From Gemmatimonadota bacterium (GTDB lineage Bacteria > Gemmatimonadota > Gemmatimonadetes > Longimicrobiales > Gaopeijiaceae), in contig JAXHMG010000003.1 of the NCBI GenBank assembly GCA_034521595.1, positions 480,001 through 544,000 on the forward strand: 64,000 bases of DNA. The letters run 5' to 3'. A program made the position numbers and the translations under genes. How positions within the stretch are numbered: position 1 is the first letter of the stretch; every line of letters starts with the position of its first letter. The notes below the pieces were generated by a model. The model was given only the letters and a program-made list of their open reading frames with translations, had not been told where the DNA came from and made no database searches. Below, one piece after another: positions 683 through 59,350 of the stretch.

Positions 683-1752
683 CTCGCGTTTCCATCCTCG
701 GAGCGTCCGGATACGGGGGAGGCGAGCTCCTACGGATTCTGCTCGGCCACCCGCACGTCGAGATCGGTCAGGTCACGTCCAGGCGGCTCGCGGGGAAGCC
801 GGTGCACCGTGCGCATCCGAACCTCCGGGGTCACACCTCGCTCCGCTTCTCGTCTCCCGACGAGCTCGAGCCCTGCGATCTGCTCTTTCTCGCGCTCCCG
901 CACGGCGGAGCGTCGGCGCGGTGGGACGCGCTCGAGCCCCTTGCCGAGCGTTTCGTGGACATGAGCGCAGACTTCAGGCTCGACGATCCAGGGCTTTATG
1001 AGCGCTACTACGGGCCGCATCCACGCCCGGAGCTTCTGGGCACATTCGCCTATGGCTTGGCCGAAGCGAACCGGGAACAAATCCGGGGCGCCAGGCGCGT
1101 CGCGACCGGCGGGTGCAACGCCACCGTCTCGATCCTGGCCCTTCTGCCGTTGTACGAGGCGGGCGTAGTGCTGCCGGATCGGACGGTGGTCGATGTGAAG
1201 GTGGGCTCGAGTGAGGCCGGCGCCGACGCGAACGAAGGCTCGCACCATCCGGTCCGGAGTGGCGTCGTACGTCCGTACAGTCCCACCGGTCACCGCCACA
1301 CGGCCGAGGTCGAAGCCGTGCTGCGTGGTCTGTCCGACGGTGCCGGAGATCCCAGGGACGTCTCGCCCTCGGAGGCCCGGGTGCACCTGAGCGTGACCGC
1401 CATCGAAATGGTCCGTGGCGCTGCGGCGCTGGCGCACGTGTTTCTCCGAGAAGGCGTCTCACAGCGCGACATCTGGTCCATCTACCGGAAGCGGTACGCG
1501 GACGAGCCGTTCGTTCGAATCGTCTCCGAGCGACAGGGCGCCTACCGGCTCCCCGAGCCCAAGCTGCTGTCCGGGACGAATCACTGCGACATCGGTTTCG
1601 AGCTCGACGCGTCGGGAGAACGGTTGGTCGTGGCCGCGGCGATCGACAACCTCGTGAAGGGCTCGGCGGGGCAGGCGGTCCAGGCGATGAACCTGATGCT
1701 GGGCTGGGACGAGCGGGCGGGGCTCGGGTTCCCGGGCCTGCACCCCATCTAG
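679..1752 (+). CDS. lysY: LysY/ArgC-type LysW-acyl-phosphate reductase
   Basis: ILGASGYGGGELLR Rossmann motif, VATGGCNAT catalytic Cys, DNLVKGSAGQAVQAMNL. Confidence 0.88.
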   Translation: MTRVSILGASGYGGGELLRILLGHPHVEIGQVTSRRLAGKPVHRAHPNLRGHTSLRFSSPDELEPCDLLFLALPHGGASARWDALEPLAERFVDMSADFRLDDPGLYERYYGPHPRPELLGTFAYGLAEANREQIRGARRVATGGCNATVSILALLPLYEAGVVLPDRTVVDVKVGSSEAGADANEGSHHPVRSGVVRPYSPTGHRHTAEVEAVLRGLSDGAGDPRDVSPSEARVHLSVTAIEMVRGAAALAHVFLREGVSQRDIWSIYRKRYADEPFVRIVSERQGAYRLPEPKLLSGTNHCDIGFELDASGERLVVAAAIDNLVKGSAGQAVQAMNLMLGWDERAGLGFPGLHPI

Positions 1753-50829: not shown

Positions 50830-52680
50830 TCAGCCCGTGGCTCGGAGCTCGCCTTCCTGGACGACGCGGAGCGCGACGTCGGTCCTACGGGCTGGAGCGT
50901 TCACGTGGAATCCCTGAACCAGGGGGCGCACGGCTTCGATCGTTTCCAATGCGATCCGGACGCCTTCTTCGAGGGCCCCGTCCTTCCCACCGGACTCTTC
51001 GGCCTCGCGCATGCGCTCCACGACGCGTTCCGGCACCTTGACGCCGGGCATTTCGTTGGCGAGGAACTCGGCGTTTCGTAGGTCCACGAGCGGCCAGATG
51101 CCGGCGATGACCGGGATGGGATGGGGGGCCGCCTCCAGGAAGCGCTCGAGCGCCGTAGGGTCGAAGATCGGCTGTGTGATGGCGAAGTCCGCACCGGCTT
51201 CCACCTTGTAGGAGAACCGACGGAGCTCCCGCTCCTGATCGACCGCGCCCTGGTTGATCGCGATCCCCTGAACGAACTCCGTCGGCTTGCCGATGGAGTT
51301 CCCGCCGGGATCGACACCCCGGTTGAGGCCCTGGATGACGTTGGTGAGCCCGATGGCGTCGATATCGAACACGGCCGTGGCGTCGGGATAAGGGCCCATC
51401 GCCGGGAGGTCCCCCGTGACCACGATCAGGTTGTGGAGACCCGAAGCCGCCGCACCCAGGAGATCCGAGATCATCCCGAGCATGTTCTTGTCCCGACACG
51501 TATAGTGGAGCAGCGTCTCGATCCCGACCTCACGCTCGATGACGGTGCAGGCCGAAAGGGCGCTCATGTGGCTGCGAACCACGGGACTTTCGAGGACTTC
51601 CACGGCGTCCACGCCGGCGACCTTGAGCTCCCTGGCTCGCTCCACGAGCTCGTCTGTCGCCCACCCGTCGGGCGGCAAGAGCTCGACCGAGACCACGGGT
51701 TCGCCCCGTGCCAGCTTCCGGCCCCAGGCTGATCGGTGCTCCAGGGGAACCTTCGCCGCTTCCGCCGGCTCGGCTTCGGGGGGCTCAGCCGGCACTCGAA
51801 TAGACGCGTGCCGCGGCTGTGTCGACGCTACCCCTGCTCGAATCTCGCGGATGTGATCCGGAGTCGTGCCGCAACAACCCCCTACGAAGCGAACGCCCAC
51901 ATCGATCATACGAAGGGCGTATTGCGCCATGTATTCCGGGCTCGCGAGATACATGGTGCGGTCACCGACCGTCCGGGGAAGCCCCGCGTTCGGTTGCGCG
52001 ACCAGCGGAAGCGATGTGGCGTGGGCCATGGCCTCGATCGCGTCCAACATGACGGCGGGCCCGACCGAGCAATTGAGCCCCACCACGTCGACACCGAGGT
52101 CGGTGAGCGCGCGCGCGATCTGTCCGGAATCCGCGCCGTAGGAGGTGCGACCGTCCTGGCCCACCGTCATCTGCGCGACGACGGGAAGGTCGGTGCGTTC
52201 CCGCACGGCTCCGAGGGCACATTCGATCTCGGTCAGGTCGGAGAACGTCTCCAGCACGAGGCCGTGCACGCCCCCTTCGAGGAGCCCGTCGACCTGTCTG
52301 CCGAAGTAGGCACGGGCCTCATCTCGGGAGGTCGGCCCGAACGGCTCGACCCGGATTCCGAGCGGGCCCACCGCACCCGCGACCGAGACCTCGTTGCCCG
52401 CCGCTTCGAGGGCGATCCCGGCCGCGGCCCGGTTGAGCTCTTCGGTGCGGTCGGCCAGACCGTACGCGGAGAGCTTCACCGGGTTGGCGCCGAAAGTGTT
52501 GGTCTCCAGGATCTCGGCGCCCGCGGCCACGTACTCGGCGTGAATGCGCCGGACCGTGTCCGGATGGTCCAGGTTCAGCTCGTCGTAGCAGACATTGACG
52601 AACACGCCCCGACTGTACAAGAGCGTGCCCATCGCGCCGTCGAAGACATGGACCCGACCGTCCTCGATCAGGTGCTTCAA
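50830..52680 (-). CDS. Bifunctional homocysteine S-methyltransferase / MTHFR (YitJ-like)
   Basis: [26 protein letters not shown]; then SVELLPP, HYTCRD, VTGD, ITQPIFD; TTG start overlaps metH stop. Confidence 0.9.
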
Positions 52681-55600
52681 CCGTCTTCTCCGGGCTCGTA
52701 GCCGAGGCTGGGCGCGAGCCACTGCTCGGCTTCTTCGACGGTCCAGTCCTTACGGGCCGCGTAGTCCTCGATCTGGTCTCGACCGATGCGCCCGATACCG
52801 AAGTACTTGGAGCTCGGGTGCGAGAAATACCATCCGCTGACCGATGCCGCAGGGTACATGGCAAAGCCGTCGGTGAGCTCGATCCCGACCTTGTTCGTCA
52901 CATCGAGAAGCTCGAAGAGCGTGCGCTTCTCGGTGTGGTCGGGACACGCCGGATAGCCGGGGGCGGGGCGGATGCCCACGTACTCCTCGGCGACGAGTCC
53001 CTCATTGTCCAGATCTTCGTCCGGAGCGTATCCCCAGAGCTCCTGGCGCACCACGGCGTGCATGCGCTCGGCCAGGGCCTCGGCGAGCCGGTCGGCGAGC
53101 GACTTCACCAGGATCGACGCGTAGTCGTCGTTTTCGCTCGCCAGCTTGTCCGCGTACTCCTTGGCACCGAGCCCGGTCGTCACGGCGAAGGCTCCGACCC
53201 AGTCCTCCAGCCCGGTGTCCTCCGGTGCTACGAAGTCGGACAGACAGTAGTTCGCCCTCCCCTTCTTCGCGAATTGCTGCCGGAGGCTATGTAGCGTGGT
53301 GAGCACGTCCTCGCGTCCCTCGTCCTTGAAGACGCGGATGTCGTCACCCACCGCGGAGGCCGGGAAGAGCCCCACTAAGGCGCGGGCTTCCAGGATCTCT
53401 TCCTTCTCGAGGTAATCGAGCATCTCGATCGCGTCGTCGAAGAGCGACTTCGCCTGCGGTCCGACGTCCTCGTCCTCGAAGAGGTCCGGGTACTTCCCCG
53501 GAACCTCCCAGGCCTGGAAGAACGGGGTCCAGTCGATGTAGCGCCGGATCTCCGAGATCGGGATGTCGTTGAACTCGTGGATGCCCGGCTTGTTGGGCGT
53601 GGGCGGGGTGTAGCCGTCCCACTCCGGTTTGTGTGCGCGTCGGCGCGCTTCTCCGATGGGTAGGAGCTTGGTGCGCGCCTGTCGGCCGGCGCGCCGTTCC
53701 CGCTCGGCCTGGTAGTCGGCCGTCACCTCTTCGAGATAGCCTTCCTTCTTGTTGGGATCCAGGAGCTTGCCCACGACGCCGACCGCGCGGGAAGCGTCGA
53801 GCACGTGGACGGTCGGGCCGTCGTAGCCGTCCACGATCTTGATGGCGGTGTGGGCTTTCGACGTGGTCGCGCCACCGATCAGCAGCGGGATGGTGAAGTC
53901 CTCCCGCTGCATCTCCTTGGCGACGTGGACCATCTGGTCCAGGGAGGGCGTGATCAGACCCGAGAGCCCGATGATGTCCACCTCCTCGTCGCGCGCCGTA
54001 TCCAGGATCTTGTCCGACGGCACCATCACGCCCAAGTCGACCGTGTCGTAGCCGTTACACTCGAGCACCACGCCCACGATGTTCTTGCCGATGTCGTGAA
54101 CGTCGCCCTTCACGGTGGCGAGCAGAACCTTCCCCTTCTTCTCCCCTTCCTTCTTCTCCGCCTCGAGGAACGGGAAGAGGTAAGCCACGGCCTTCTTCAT
54201 GACCCGGGCGCTCTTCACGACCTGCGGGAGAAACATCTTCCCTTCGCCGAAGAGGTCGCCCACGACGTTCATGCCGTCCATGAGTGGCCCTTCGATGACG
54301 TCGAGGGCTCCGGGCAAGGCCTGTCTGGCCTCCTCCGCGTCTTCCTCCACGTACTGGTCGATTCCCTTCACGAGCGAGTGCGACAACCGCTCGAAGACGG
54401 GAAGCTCCCGCCAGGCCAGGTCCTCCTCGTCACGCCGCTCTTCGCTTCCGCTCCGTTCCTCCGCGATGCGGGTCAGCACCTCGGTGGCTTCGGGGTCGCG
54501 GTTGAAGAGCACGTCCTCGATCGGTTTTAGCAGATCCTCGGGGATCTCGTCGTAGATCGGGAGGGCGCCCGCGTTCACGATGGCCATGTCGAGACCGGCC
54601 TTGATCGCGTGGTAGAGGAACGCCGCGTGCATGGCCTCGCGGACCTCCGGGCTTCCCCGGAAGGAGAACGAGACGTTGCTCACACCGCCACTGGTGAGCG
54701 CGTGCGGGCACGCTTCCTTGATCCGCTTCAGCGACTCGATGAAGTCGATCGCGTACTCGTTGTGCTCTTCCATCCCCGTCGCGATCGCGAAGATGTTCGC
54801 GTCGAAGATGATGTCTTCGGGCGGGAATCCTTCTTCCTCGACGAGGATGCGGTACGCGCGCGTGCACACCTTCACGCGCCGCTCGATCGTATCGGCCTGG
54901 CCCTCTTCGTCGAAGGCCATGACGACGGCCGCGGCGCCGTATCGGCGCAGGAGCCGGGCCTGCTCCCGGAACTCGTCCTCGCCTTCCTTCATCGAGATGG
55001 AGTTCACCACGCCCTTGCCCTGCAGGGTGCGAAGTCCCTCCTCGATGATGTCCCACTTCGACGAGTCGACCATCACCGGGATCCGCGCGATTTCCGGCTC
55101 GCCCGCGAGCAGGTTGAGGAAATGCTTCATCGCCGCCTGGGAATCGAGCAGCCCTTCGTCCATGTTGACGTCGATGATCTGCGCGCCGCCCTCGACCTGC
55201 TGGCGCGCGACCTCGATGGCCGTCTCGTAGTCCTCGTCCCGGATGAGACGGGCGAAGCGCCGAGAACCGGTCACGTTGGTGCGCTCTCCGATGTTCACGA
55301 AGAGCGAATCGGGTCCGATGTTGAGCGGCTCGAGCCCGGACAACCGGGTGCGTGGGGGCTTCTCTTCGAATTGGCGCGGCTCGACGCCGTCCACCGCGGC
55401 CGCGATGGCGCTGATATGCTCCGGAGTGGTGCCGCAGCAGCCGCCGACGATGTTCAGGAACCCGGCCTCGGCGAAGTCGCGGGTCAGCTCCGCCATGTGC
55501 TCCGGCGTGTCCTCGTAGTCACCGAACTCGTTCGGCAGCCCGGCGTTCGCGTAGAGGCTGACCGGCATCTCGGCTACATCGGAGAGTTCCTCGATGTGCG

Positions 55601-56387
55601 GGCGCAGCTCGTCGATGCCGAGTGCGCAGTTCAGGCCGACGGAGAGGAGTCCGGAAGCCCGTCCCGGGCCGGGCTGCACGCCGTGGGAGACCGAGTTGTA
55701 GAACGCTTCCGGGGTCTGACCCGAGAGCGTCCGTCCGCTCCGGTCCGTGATCGTGCCCGACACCATGACCGGCAGGTCCTTTTCGAGCTCGGCGAGAACC
55801 TCCGAGACTGCGAACAGCGCGGCCTTTGCGTTGAGCGTGTCGAAGACGGTCTCGATGAGGAGCGCGTCCACGCCGCCGCGAATCAGGCCCCGGGTCTGCT
55901 CCGAATACGCCACCACGAGCTCTTCGAAGGTGACATTGCGGGCCGAGGGATCGCCGACGTCCGGTGAGATAGAGGCGGTCCGGTTGGTGGGCCCGATGGC
56001 GCCGAGCACCCACCGCGGCCGGTCCGGGTTCTGCTCCGTGACCGCTTCGGCCGCCCGGCGGGCCACACGTGCGGCCTCTTCGTTCAACTCCTCGGCGATT
56101 TCGCTGAGATCGTAATCCTCGAGCGAGATCCGGTTGGCGTTAAAGGTGTTCGTCTCGATCAGATCGGCGCCTGCTTCCAGGAACGACCGATGGATCTCTT
56201 CGATCACGTCCGGGCGCGTGATGCAGAGTAGATCGTTCGAGCCCATGAGGTCCGCGTCTACGTCGGCGAACCGACTCCCGCGAAAATCATCCTCTTCGAG
56301 TTGGTACCGCTGGATCATCGTGCCCATGGCTCCGTCGAGAACCAGAATCCGACGCTCCAGGTGCTGCTGTATGGTATCGATCTCTAT
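52677..56387 (-). CDS. metH: Cobalamin-dependent methionine synthase
   Basis: [56 protein letters not shown]; exact start unclear. Confidence 0.96.
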
Positions 56388-56411: not shown

Positions 56412-56442
56412 AAAAACCCCGTCGCGGGTGTTCGCGAAGGGG
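56412..56442 (-). terminator. Intrinsic terminator in the metH leader
   Basis: Minus strand CCCC-T-TCGCG aacacc CGCGA-C-GGGG followed by TTTTT. Confidence 0.7.
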
Positions 56443-56448
56443 CCGGGC

Positions 56449-56520
56449 GTTTTAGCTCGTTTACGCACGAACCCTGAAGGACTCGCGACGCGGGCCGCAA
56501 TATGCCGCAAATCGCCCCGT
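56449..56520 (-). promoter_or_regulatory. SAM-II-like riboswitch aptamer
   Basis: Minus strand GGGC-GATTTG...TTGCG-GCCC...TAAACGA-GCTAAA matches the SAM-II consensus order; directly upstream of metH. Confidence 0.72.
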
Positions 56521-56590
56521 TTAATTTGTATCCCCCAAAGCTAGCGGACTTCCCGGTGCGATCCAAGAGCGAGGGCTCACCCGGGTTGGT

Positions 56591-59350
56591 TCAGCGACCC
56601 AGCCAGTACGAGAGCTTCACCATGAAGACATCGCGTGGCGCGACACCGAAGAGGTTACCGAGGTCTCGAGACAGATCGAAATCTCCGAGACCCGCGGAGT
56701 CGTCCCGCCCCTGGGACCACACGAGGAAGAGCGTGGAGCCCGGCCGAAACTCCCATCGGAGCACCGCGTTCGATCGGAACCGTCTCACGTTGAAGTCCGG
56801 GTCGTCGAAGGACTCTTCGGTCGCGTCTCGGTCCAGGTCCGCGTAGTACGTGCGCCCGTCGCGGCGGGGGGCCAGCGGCTCGAAGCGGTCCGCGTACCGC
56901 TCGGCCCTTGGATTGGCCACCGTCTTGAAGTCGCCGTAACGGCCGGCGCTCACGAATGGTTGCGCGTAGAGTTGGAGGGAGACGGTCGGCGTGAAGGCGT
57001 AGTCGGCCCGGACGGTCACGCCGATGGTCGTCTGATGGAGGCGACCGAAGAGGTAGTGTGGCGCGTCCGTCTCGATCTTGCCGACCCATTGACGGTCGTC
57101 GACGCGCCGGTTCACGAACGTTCCGAGATTGAACGTCGCTCGGTCGGACGGTCGGATGCGGACGTTCGGCGAGAGGTTGAGCGCCCACGAGTCGCTGGCC
57201 GGGCGGACGTTCCCCGAGCCGTTCACGTTCAGCTGCACGGGCTTGCGCCCGTCCGTTCCGAATCCGCCCCAGAAGTTCGTCTGCGCCTCCCTACGGAACA
57301 TCGGTCCACCGCGCAGCGTGCCGGCATCGAGCGTCTCGAGGTTGCTGTTCACACCGGCCCAGGCGTTCCAGAAATTCTGGAACTGCACGTTGGCGTTGAC
57401 GTTGCCTCCCGTCCCGGTTCCGGCGCCTTCGTAGTTCCAGTTGTTCCACGCGGTGAGGTTGAGGGACCAACGGCGGAAGGGGCCCTGCGGGGCATTGTGG
57501 TGATAGCCGAGCCACCCCCAATGCGTGAGGTAGTCCGCGCTGTTCATGAAGCCGAGATCGTTCACTTCGAACCCGGGCGAGCGGGTCTGAAGCCCCGTGG
57601 CGAAGCGCCAATAACCTCCGGCGACCTTGCTGATGGACAGATCCGCGGCCGCGCCCGTGAGGGTGGTGCGCTCCGGATCGAAGGTGACGTGCTCCGCATC
57701 GGGCCGCTGGAAGTACCGAGCGGGGGAGCGCTGCGTTCGTGCGATCGCGTCCGGCGAGCCGCGGACGTGACTGCCCAGCACGTAACCCGAGAGCTCCCAG
57801 CGCTCGTCCGCGAAGCGGTGTCGGAAGTCCAGTCCACCGCTGTAGGCTTCCGACCGCAGCTTCAGGGCTTCGGCCGTGGCCCCGTCTCGACGGGTTCCGG
57901 TCCCGATCATCCCGATGGCCGAGCGTCCCTCGCGGAAGTCTTTCTGGATCCGTAGGACTCCGTAGTTCGTGAGCGGCTCGACCGGTTCTTCGTACCTCGC
58001 GCCCTGTTCGGGAGCGACACGGGCGCTCTCTTCGGAGGTCAGGGCGTGGAGCGCTCCGATGGACCACCCTCCGGCCGTCTTGCCGGAAAGCTTCCACGCT
58101 CCGTAGATCGACGTCCTGTCGTCCGCTTCGGAGAAAGCGTCGTTCGCCTCCACGCTGCCCTGAGGTGCCCGTCCGATCCGGCGTGAATAGAAGAGAGACT
58201 CGTTGGCACCGTCTCCGTCTCCGATCCCGAGCGAAAAGTTGAAGATGCTGGACCCTTCGACGAAGAACGGTCGCCGTTCGGGAAGAAACGTTTCGAAGGC
58301 CGAGAGATTCACCTGTGCCGGGTCCGCCTCGACCTGACCGAAGTCGGGGTTGAGCGTAACGTCGAGGGTGAGATCCGGGGTGAGGCCGTACTTGAGGTTC
58401 GCACCCACCTGACCCAACGGGTCGTTGGGGCGATGGAACGGATTCTCCGGGTCTCCGGGAGCGCGCTCGAGCCCGCCCAGCGTGTACGGAAGGAGCTCGA
58501 GCCGGCTCGGAGTGTCGAGCTCACGGATCCCACGGAGCTCGCCGAAGCGGGAAACGAGAGCATTCGCCGACCGGGGCGTGGGGGACCAGAGAGCCATTTC
58601 CTGGTTCCGGGCGATTTCCCGGACGAAGTTGATGCCCCAGGTTTGCGTGGACTCGTCGCGGAAGCGGAGCTGAGAGTACGGAATCCGGAATTCCGCGGAC
58701 CACCCGTCGTCGCTCACCTCCGTGGCGACGTCCCAGACCGCGTCCCAGCCCGAATCCTCGGACGTGTCGTCGAAGTGGTAGACGTCGTGCTTCACCCCGA
58801 CCGGGTTGACGCTGAACTGGAAGGCGGTGCGTCGATCGTGGTACGAATCGATCGCGACGCCCAGGAGATCGGAGTGGGAGCGCTGGTCACGCCGCGTGAG
58901 CTGACCCACGATCTCCTCGGGCCGGGGCTCGAAAGCCTTCATGTGAACGTACAGCGACCGGTCACCGTAGAGCACGCGAGCCTCCGTGCGCTGCGACGCG
59001 GGGGCGCCTTCCCGGGGCGCCAGCTGCACGAACTCCGTGGCCACTTCGGCGGATTGCCACGCGGCTTCGTCGGCGCGTCCGTCGATCTCGATCGTCTGAT
59101 CGGTCACCGGTGCCGCCTGCAACGTGCGCAGGGCCGATGGGCTTGCGGTCTCCGCGCCGTCGCCGACGCCGTTGGTCGGTCCGTCCTGGAAGGCCGCCGC
59201 CTCCACGCTCGAACACGCCATCGCGAGCCCCACGACGGTCACCACTCTGCACCGCGTCCACATCATCCTCATCCTCATCCCGTTCGACTCCCTGCTCGAT
59301 TCGTGTGCGGCCGGCGTCCTGGTCGGTCGACGGTCCATGACGGCAGCCAT
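56591..59350 (-). CDS. CBM9-like domain + DUF5916 beta-barrel outer-membrane protein
   Basis: IDGRADEAAW, WSAEFRIPYSQLRF, NPDFGQVEAD, ERRPFFVEG, LFYSRRIG, VKLSYW; start may be ~59278. Confidence 0.85.
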   Translation of the reverse strand: MAAVMDRRPTRTPAAHESSRESNGMRMRMMWTRCRVVTVVGLAMACSSVEAAAFQDGPTNGVGDGAETASPSALRTLQAAPVTDQTIEIDGRADEAAWQSAEVATEFVQLAPREGAPASQRTEARVLYGDRSLYVHMKAFEPRPEEIVGQLTRRDQRSHSDLLGVAIDSYHDRRTAFQFSVNPVGVKHDVYHFDDTSEDSGWDAVWDVATEVSDDGWSAEFRIPYSQLRFRDESTQTWGINFVREIARNQEMALWSPTPRSANALVSRFGELRGIRELDTPSRLELLPYTLGGLERAPGDPENPFHRPNDPLGQVGANLKYGLTPDLTLDVTLNPDFGQVEADPAQVNLSAFETFLPERRPFFVEGSSIFNFSLGIGDGDGANESLFYSRRIGRAPQGSVEANDAFSEADDRTSIYGAWKLSGKTAGGWSIGALHALTSEESARVAPEQGARYEEPVEPLTNYGVLRIQKDFREGRSAIGMIGTGTRRDGATAEALKLRSEAYSGGLDFRHRFADERWELSGYVLGSHVRGSPDAIARTQRSPARYFQRPDAEHVTFDPERTTLTGAAADLSISKVAGGYWRFATGLQTRSPGFEVNDLGFMNSADYLTHWGWLGYHHNAPQGPFRRWSLNLTAWNNWNYEGAGTGTGGNVNANVQFQNFWNAWAGVNSNLETLDAGTLRGGPMFRREAQTNFWGGFGTDGRKPVQLNVNGSGNVRPASDSWALNLSPNVRIRPSDRATFNLGTFVNRRVDDRQWVGKIETDAPHYLFGRLHQTTIGVTVRADYAFTPTVSLQLYAQPFVSAGRYGDFKTVANPRAERYADRFEPLAPRRDGRTYYADLDRDATEESFDDPDFNVRRFRSNAVLRWEFRPGSTLFLVWSQGRDDSAGLGDFDLSRDLGNLFGVAPRDVFMVKLSYWLGR

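Follow-up and report, generated by a model that had tools for sequence, protein, structure and literature searches.

The window, that is, the whole stretch of 64,000 nt that was analysed, carries a metH gene on its minus strand, and minus-strand positions 56523-56412, with metH downstream, contain all of the motifs of a SAM-II-like element. These positions fall within an intergenic gap of 263 nt, which runs on the minus strand from the stop codon of a DUF5916 gene (56591) to the metH ORF. The features of the locus are given below, where A1 is an alignment of 33 distinct leaders, SAM_alpha is the SAM-II family of Rfam (RF00521) and L018 is a relative whose leader has no inserted hairpin.

56561..56566, minus strand: -35-like hexamer TTGGAT of the probable metH promoter, proposed from its recurrence in relatives
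56538..56543, minus strand: -10-like hexamer TAGCTT, separated by 17 nt from the -35-like box and by about 19 nt from P1, proposed from its recurrence in relatives
56514..56519, minus strand: P1 5' strand (C56519, bulged G56518 and GGGC at 56517-56514), from the pairing in A1; also the predicted antiterminator strand
56513-56508, minus strand: GATTTG, read from the sequence
56507..56513, minus strand: L1, GAUUUGC, the U-rich loop of SAM-II, with invariant A/T/T/T columns in A1 and aligned with GAUUUG of SAM_alpha
56500-56496, minus strand: TTGCG, read from the sequence
56497..56506, minus strand: P2 5' strand GGCAUAUUGC, 98.5% of cells pairing with 56446-56456
56491..56495, minus strand: P1 3' strand GCCC(G), from the pair counts in A1
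56464..56490, minus strand: lineage-variable hairpin between the P1 3' strand and L3, from folding in relatives
56463-56459, minus strand: TAAAC, read from the sequence
56457..56463, minus strand: conserved L3 stretch UAAACGA, its AAC.A block kept in A1 and aligned in L018 with AAAcAA of SAM_alpha
56456-56451, minus strand: GCTAAA, read from the sequence
56446..56456, minus strand: P2 3' strand GCUAAAACGCC with bulged U56454, from the A1 alignment and pair counts
56412..56443, minus strand: intrinsic-terminator-like hairpin (56443-56416) and U tract (56416-56412), from folding and relatives
52677..56381, minus strand: metH (cobalamin-dependent methionine synthase), from Pfam domains, starting probably at ATC 56381-56379

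The metH ORF contains five Pfam domains (S-methyl_trans, Pterin_bind, B12-binding_2, B12-binding and Met_synt_B12), which make up a complete cobalamin-dependent methionine synthase. Between the in-frame TGA at 56393-56391 and the conserved MetH N-terminus there is no ATG, GTG or TTG. The triplets ATC GAT ACC (56381-56373) are kept in six of six members of the genus, with synonymous changes downstream, and the Pfam S-methyl_trans profile begins at residue 13 of the MetH translated from ATC; this non-canonical ATC is probably the start codon. The gene upstream (56591-59350, minus strand) encodes a DUF5916 protein of 919 aa, the annotation of which is unrelated to methionine metabolism. The closest MetH loci belong to MAGs labelled Gemmatimonadales, Gemmatimonadota or Longimicrobiales.

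A probable promoter spans 56566-56538, as judged from boxes that recur in relatives: a TAnnTTTG/TAnnTT motif is found 15-20 nt before P1, CTTGG-type boxes recur 17-20 nt upstream of the TAnnTT box, and an ACAA stretch, which in the window lies just before P1 after TAGCTT(TG), accompanies the promoter boxes in many of them. Of 61 leaders, 5 have the -10 motif in its strict form and 20 in a looser one; for random windows of 75 nt the frequency of the strict form is 0.7%. A sigma-70 scan of the window did not find the metH promoter. TAnnTTTG is a promoter motif of Bacteroidetes, which the -10 box of the window resembles. Since the putative promoter lies between the upstream stop codon and P1, the terminator described below would stand inside the metH leader and would not simply be the terminator of the upstream gene.

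The initial annotation had read GATTTG, TTGCG, TAAAC and GCTAAA here as the ordered motifs of SAM-II, and all four are present at the coordinates listed, on the minus strand. Alignment of metH leaders from relatives, which it had proposed as a check, finds these motifs conserved across genera. BLAST of the leader against 60 relatives returned long matches within the same genus and, in about 10 other genera, a 28-nt core at 90-100% identity with no conservation of its flanks. Of 30 loci returned by a fuzzy search, 22 contain this core. From a search anchored on MetH, 80 loci were obtained, of which 13 were labelled Gemmatimonad* or Longimicrobiales; the motif lies upstream of metH in 11 of these 13, and the other two are L033, with a copy that reads AAUUU for GAUUU, and L039, which has a SAM-I riboswitch. 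None of the 67 MetH loci from other phyla was matched by the motif regular expression. The rows of A1 were picked by a regular expression requiring GATTT, TTGC and GCTAAA, and the invariance of those letters in the alignment is thus partly circular; the BLAST and covariance-model matches are free of this constraint and have the same core letters.

A pair-count model on A1 proposes 13 pairs, arranged as P1 (columns 6-10 with 29-33) and P2 (columns 18-27 with 83-93). Over the 33 leaders 92.5% of the pseudoknot cells are paired, against 28-59% with the partners slid by 1-3 columns; by helix the values are 83% for P1 and 98.5% for P2. Within P1, columns 7-10 with 32-29 are paired in 30-33 of 33 cells, with UA and UG variants, and the outermost proposed pair (columns 6/33) is unsupported, 25 of its 33 cells being unpaired. 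Two-sided changes were found at five pairs overall, in both helices, and at three of the eight pairs of P2. GGC/GCC is replaced by GGU/ACC in four rows of A1 and by AGC/GCU in one, a U-A pair of P2 is G-C in two rows, and a G-C pair of P1 is U-A in one. The covariation score of the observed alignment was reached by none of 500 shuffles. Two relatives of the same genus (L002 and L005) have a C.U mismatch in P2a. Conservation of the aptamer is beyond chance.

In the window the pseudoknot comprises P1 (GGGC/GCCC), P2 (GGCAUAUUGC/GCUAAAACGCC) and L1 (GAUUUGC). Two traits by which membership of the SAM-II class was judged, namely an H-type pseudoknot with covariation and the ordered core letters GAUUUG/UUGC/AAAC/GCUAAA, were found in the element. 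Both the topology and the letters, which fall in L1, the P2 5' strand, L3 and the P2 3' strand respectively, are shared with SAM-II (the metA motif, RF00521 SAM_alpha, PMC1273637). The GC-U-AA arrangement of the P2 3' strand of the window also appears in the consensus structure line of SAM_V in Rfam. The nested MFE structure of the window has the 5' arm of the insert (GCGUCGCGAGUC) bound to L1 and the P2 5' strand (GAUUUGCGGC), within 56466-56513, and a second alternative hairpin forms over AAAC and GAGCU; both structures compete with the aptamer, and neither is predicted in relatives.

At gathering thresholds, cmscan found no Rfam match anywhere in the window, and a permissive scan of 451 nt (E<=10) returned only chance-level matches to CrfA and sR45, with the SAM families and the SAH riboswitch both absent. 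Searches with the SAM_alpha, SAM-II long-loop and SAM-V models, by which the initial annotation had thought the element could be verified, all left the window unmatched. RF00521 had no match at E<=0.01 over the whole genome from which the window comes, and RF01726 (SAM-II long loops, cut-off 44 bits) none at E<=10 over the same genome; SAM-V (RF01826, cut-off 41 bits) had none in the window at E<=10, and by these searches the window belongs to neither of the latter two families. In four relatives RF01726 produced one unrelated match of 23.7 bits, a weak hit (E 0.07) at G003:C6:9183-9240 (-) in a genome of the same genus, away from metH. None of 20 leaders of the family passes any Rfam cut-off, and the cut-offs also missed 16 further variant leaders among 19 loci. 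The gathering cut-off of RF00521 (36 bits), taken as the operational criterion of the SAM-II class, is likewise not reached by the window.

The insert-less L018 aligns over its full length with SAM_alpha at 22.1 bits (E 0.004, cut-off 36), with P1, GAUUUG, UUGC, AAAcAA and GCUAAA all in register and its P1 5' stretch aligned to P1 of the Rfam model. We built a covariance model, R1, from the A1 leaders only. In the genome of the window R1 has one convincing copy, at 75.9 bits; a second match (C1:23772-23849, 21.9 bits) was rejected as spurious, its alignment lacking UAUUGC and GCUAAA. R1 matches were obtained in 95 of the 121 sampled genomes of the family of the window and in 101 of 151 sampled genomes of the phylum. 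RF00521, run on a sample of the same kind, passes its cut-off in 100 of 151 phylum genomes, but in only 1 of 16 from the window's own family. The phylum tallies (BLAST, R1 and RF00521) include the unpublished genomes G056, G037 and G116, and the loci, alignments and models draw on none of these.

Outside the family, 18 of the best R1 loci were compared by eye and coincide with RF00521 matches of about 41-60 bits, and on such loci R1 itself scores 44-55 bits; the element is thereby homologous with accepted SAM-II members. One example, G120:C43, has 54.9 bits by R1 and 60.4 by RF00521, and the coincidence was confirmed separately for L120 and L129, so that canonical copies of the same phylum are matched by the two models at identical coordinates. 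Because a model made from these leaders lands on the loci that RF00521 scores elsewhere in the phylum, we consider the element to be a diverged branch of SAM-II, a variant unrecorded in Rfam, and on this sequence evidence reject a separate class.

Compact canonical copies of the phylum read CGUGGC...GCCACG-UUAAACAA-GCUAAAAAGCC, whereas the lineage of the window reads CGGGGC...GCCCG, often with a hairpin directly after P1. The window differs from RF00521 members in its P1, GGGC/GCCC with a bulged G against the canonical U-A pair (CGUGGC/GCCACG), in an extra hairpin between P1 and L3, about 27 nt long (relatives, 20-39 nt), and in a score below 36 bits, the window having no match and the insert-less relative 22.1 bits. 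Another form was seen in L038, L071, L118, L121, L123, L127, L128 and L132, where a 53-54-nt aptamer combines a very short P1 (GGC/GCC) with a lengthened P2a (GUGGC/GCCAC). At several of these loci the aptamer is followed by no terminator but by a long leader, in which a GGCGGGAAGCGCGGGACA-like stretch is conserved; in one genus, the leader of the 53-54-nt variants is of a different, long kind. The initial annotation had taken the element for a structural variant in a phylum other than that of the well-known copies; the host is indeed not a proteobacterium, but the phylum is no new ground for SAM-II, which is already present in canonical form in 100 of its 151 sampled genomes. A literature search, confined largely to papers outside the subscription journals, found nothing in print on SAM-II in Gemmatimonadota.

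The genes downstream are those of the methionine and SAM cycle, as for SAM-II. Among the frames downstream of the best 29 R1 loci, 14 have S-methyl_trans and Pterin_bind (MetH), three S-methyl_trans alone, five S-methyl_trans with MTHFR, five PALP and two no family, the last two probably being read in the wrong frame. S-methyl_trans or PALP domains are hence found in 27 of these 29 frames, which is the methionine/SAM-gene context of the SAM-II class. In L039, another Gemmatimonadota MAG, a SAM-I riboswitch (RF00162, 72.5 bits) at 1266-1384 (+) stands before metH, where relatives carry the SAM-II type, and different classes of SAM riboswitch therefore occupy the same leader within one phylum. 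From the downstream gene context and this SAM-I copy we infer that the ligand of the window's aptamer is SAM. With the covarying pseudoknot, the homology to canonical SAM-II and the MetH domains, the original call of a SAM-II-type aptamer in a metH leader stands.

The extra hairpin between P1 and the conserved AAAC was also correctly recognised at the outset. It reads CGCGAGTCC-TTCA-GGGTTCGTG at 56487-56466 and can be extended to 56490-64 (-12.2 kcal/mol, z -1.9). Among relatives the stretch from P1 to AAC.A varies in length and sequence. In 29 of 29 relatives that carry an insert, this stretch, unrelated in sequence among them, forms one hairpin of 5 bp or more (mean z -2.6), and short-linker forms without it exist. 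Counted from the listing of 101 R1 matches in the family of the window, 41 are at least 67 nt long (insert present) and 60 are 52-63 nt long. From the H-type topology reported in crystal-structure work on SAM-II it follows that a hairpin at the outer end of P1 can stack on it, away from the pocket. SAM-II seems to tolerate a hairpin at the junction of P1 and L3 together with a P1 of 4 bp. In SAM-II long loops the loop often holds a stem-loop. That family (RF01726; Weinberg et al. 2010, PMC2864571) resembles the element of the window as a recorded SAM-II variant with a longer loop; entries in that paper place it in Bacteroidetes and in marine samples and metagenomes, and the window is set apart from it by the model search and by the host phylum.

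Immediately downstream of the aptamer lies the terminator-like hairpin with a T5 run that the initial annotation had described (hairpin 56443-56416, T5 56416-56412). It has a folding energy of -17.4 kcal/mol, and its inner stem was also found by a consensus scan. In 42 of 61 leaders a custom detector picked out a hairpin followed by a T-run; two of these calls, L007 and L116, were discarded by eye, and 40 leaders were kept for downstream tests. The detector is crude; it found no hairpin plus T-run in the other 19 of 61, several of which show hairpins with poor T-runs. In 40 of the 40 leaders kept, a GC-rich terminator-like hairpin begins -3 to +6 nt from the end of P2, although kin are not independent and the counts of leaders given here and below for expression platforms overstate the evidence accordingly. 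In full-length MFE structures the terminator forms with or without the aptamer constrained, which means that any switch must be kinetic.

A terminator after P2 is a further likeness to SAM-II, and the view that termination is unusual for this class had to be given up. Passages of Corbino et al. (2005, PMC1273637) ascribe putative intrinsic terminators to many metA/SAM-II representatives and place a promoter few nucleotides before P1. The point on terminators is repeated in part of the text of Scheuer et al. (2022, PMC9373788), where two Sinorhizobium meliloti copies were studied, and to judge from sections of PMC1273637 and PMC2258182 the combination of SAM-II with terminators is a commonly predicted arrangement. 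According to Barrick and Breaker (2007, PMC2258182), control of termination by SAM-II had no experimental proof.

When folding was limited to transcripts ending at the terminator loop, the main partners of the terminator 5' arm are the P1 5' strand and the bases immediately upstream of it. Among insert-class leaders, 21 of 22 have an MFE structure of the truncated transcript in which the first 12 nt (P1 5' strand) make four or more pairs with the terminator 5' arm; among compact ones the count is 7 of 18. The pairing is seen in full in seven of seven example leaders, including the window, where it is a GGGGC:GCCCC helix. The duplex of the P1 5' strand with the terminator has a z of -1.77 with the 5' strand shuffled. 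Shuffling the terminator arm instead weakens it to -1.17 overall and to -0.64 in the window, and a large part of the signal is therefore a run of G facing a run of C. As the P1 5' strand hardly varies, covariation has no purchase on its proposed role as antiterminator. In L020, the P1 of which differs, only four pairs could be fitted by hand, one of them a wobble, and these fall on the P2 end and linker, not on the terminator arm. Together the data are suggestive of an antiterminator formed by the P1 5' strand with the first GCCCC of the terminator (56443-56439), which is better supported than one formed by the insert and which we propose with moderate confidence.

The P2 3' strand was rejected as the antiterminator of the window, where its z is +0.4 to +0.8 (insert-class mean +0.14 to -0.19). 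In the compact copies the P2 3' strand is complementary to the terminator apex, with a mean z of -1.9 and 10 of 18 below -1.64; three of them (L124, L129 and L135) reach -13.9 to -15.3 kcal/mol with z below -4. The same comparison in the insert class gives a mean z of +0.14 and none of 22 below -1.64, and the window differs from compact SAM-II in having no complementarity between the terminator apex and the P2 3' strand. In L119-L141, which are compact SAM-II copies from other families of the phylum, the terminator loop and upper stem are often like GC-UUUU(U)-GGC/AGC, complementary to the P2 3' strand GCUAAAAAGC. For compact SAM-II of the termination type the P2 3' strand is likely to be the antiterminator; its complementarity to the terminator apex is absent from the lineage of the window.

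Taking the features that are directly supported (the covarying pseudoknot, the homology to canonical SAM-II, the hairpin insert, the terminator-like hairpin and the gene context), we read the element, with a probability of roughly 0.75, as a diverged SAM riboswitch of the SAM-II class in the metH 5' leader, which would act by SAM-OFF termination through an antiterminator formed by the P1 5' strand. Transcription would probably start about 10 nt before P1, from the promoter at 56566-56538. With SAM bound, the RNA would adopt the H-type pseudoknot, in which P1 (GGGC/GCCC) forms, the U-rich L1 runs along P2, the P1 loop (GGCAUAUUGC) pairs with the 3' tail (GCUAAAACGCC) to give P2, and L3 (AAACGA) runs back along P1. 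The lineage-specific hairpin at the outer end of P1 could stack on P1 and leave the ligand pocket untouched. The P1 5' strand being locked in the pseudoknot, the downstream GCCCC would be free, the terminator (56443-56416 plus U5) would form, and transcription of metH would stop when SAM is plentiful. In the absence of SAM the weak 4-bp P1 would open and (C)GGGGC would pair with the first five bases of the terminator, giving a long-range antiterminator helix that encloses the aptamer and lets the polymerase read through into metH. Termination is the most likely means by which metH is switched off, and the OFF logic is what we infer for the switch.

A less probable account, to which we give a distinctly minor share, is that the aptamer binds SAM while the terminator is independent of it, a constitutive attenuator that makes a short riboswitch RNA, with SAM exerting its effect through mRNA stability, translation or Rho, in the manner reported for Sinorhizobium meliloti metA. 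The formation of the terminator in full-length MFE structures whether or not the aptamer is constrained agrees with this account, as does the thermodynamic nature of the antiterminator support presented here; and in part of their report the S. meliloti metA authors state that they could predict no SAM-II-driven antiterminator for their validated downstream terminator (PMC9373788). Against it, the position of the hairpin, which in each of the 40 retained leaders starts -3 to +6 nt after P2, fits coupling; the helix between the 5' strand and the terminator is predicted in 21 of 22 insert-class leaders; and inspection by eye showed no complementarity of the aptamer to the purine-rich stretch ahead of the start codon.

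It is improbable that the insert couples the aptamer to termination, with its 5' arm (CGUCGCGAGU, 56490-81) pairing with the terminator 3' arm (ACCCGCGACG, 56429-20), as the initial annotation had suggested. The complementarity on which this rests is real: CGTCGCGAGT (56490-56481) and ACCCGCGACG (56429-56420) match at 9 of 10 positions when checked by hand, and the duplex in the window has -13.5 kcal/mol with z about -1.8 by either shuffle, which is not clearly above chance. What fails is its conservation. Over 22 insert-bearing leaders that have a terminator the mean z is -0.15 with the insert shuffled and -0.19 with the arm shuffled, three to four of the 22 lying below -1.64, and in five relatives of the same genus the values are +1.06, -0.5, -0.13, +1.61 and -0.65. 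Moreover, the hairpin-less short-linker leaders L015, L018 and L020 still have terminators, the 5' arm of the insert is already occupied within its own hairpin (folded in 29 of 29 relatives), and nothing ties its opening to SAM. We conclude that the complementarity is a local coincidence in CGCG-rich sequence.

S-adenosylhomocysteine switches metH on in some Proteobacteria. That the diverged aptamer senses this or some other ligand, or is a decaying relic, is very improbable: its score reaches the cut-off of no Rfam SAM model, its P1 is shortened and two close relatives have the P2a mismatch, but the consensus letters GAUUUG, UUGC, AAAC and GCUAAA of SAM_alpha/SAM_V are all kept, an element present in 95 of 121 family genomes is not in decay, SAM-I occupies the same place in L039, no SAH-riboswitch match was obtained in the 451 nt at E<=10, and in a passage of PMC1273637 the SAM-II aptamer is described as rejecting SAH.

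The element also resembles SAM-V (RF01826), which likewise has an H-type pseudoknot and shares the UUGC / GC-U-AA arrangement of P2b; L018 scores 17.5 bits with that model, against a cut-off of 41 bits and lower than its SAM_alpha score. Parts of PMC6061858 present SAM-V as an H-type pseudoknot that binds SAM in a major-groove triple helix and describe it as controlling translation. Termination after SAM-II and longer-loop variants are already known, and canonical SAM-II is common in the phylum. The element leaves knowledge of SAM sensing itself unchanged.

In an entire family of Gemmatimonadota the regulator goes unnoticed by standard annotation, R1 having matches in 95 of 121 genomes and Rfam in 0 of 20 leaders. 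A seed alignment of these leaders would close a gap in the annotation of metH regulation in a phylum common in soil and saline habitats. We also put forward, as a speculation that we hold to be somewhat doubtful, that one phylum has two terminator wirings of the same SAM-II aptamer: the compact copies would act through the P2 3' strand, and the insert lineage would have lost that connection and would use the P1 5' strand, its weak P1 propped by the stacked hairpin. Set against each other, the two wirings would provide a simple test system for termination driven by a pseudoknot aptamer. If true, they would represent a natural rewiring of an expression platform and a testable model of how SAM-II controls termination.
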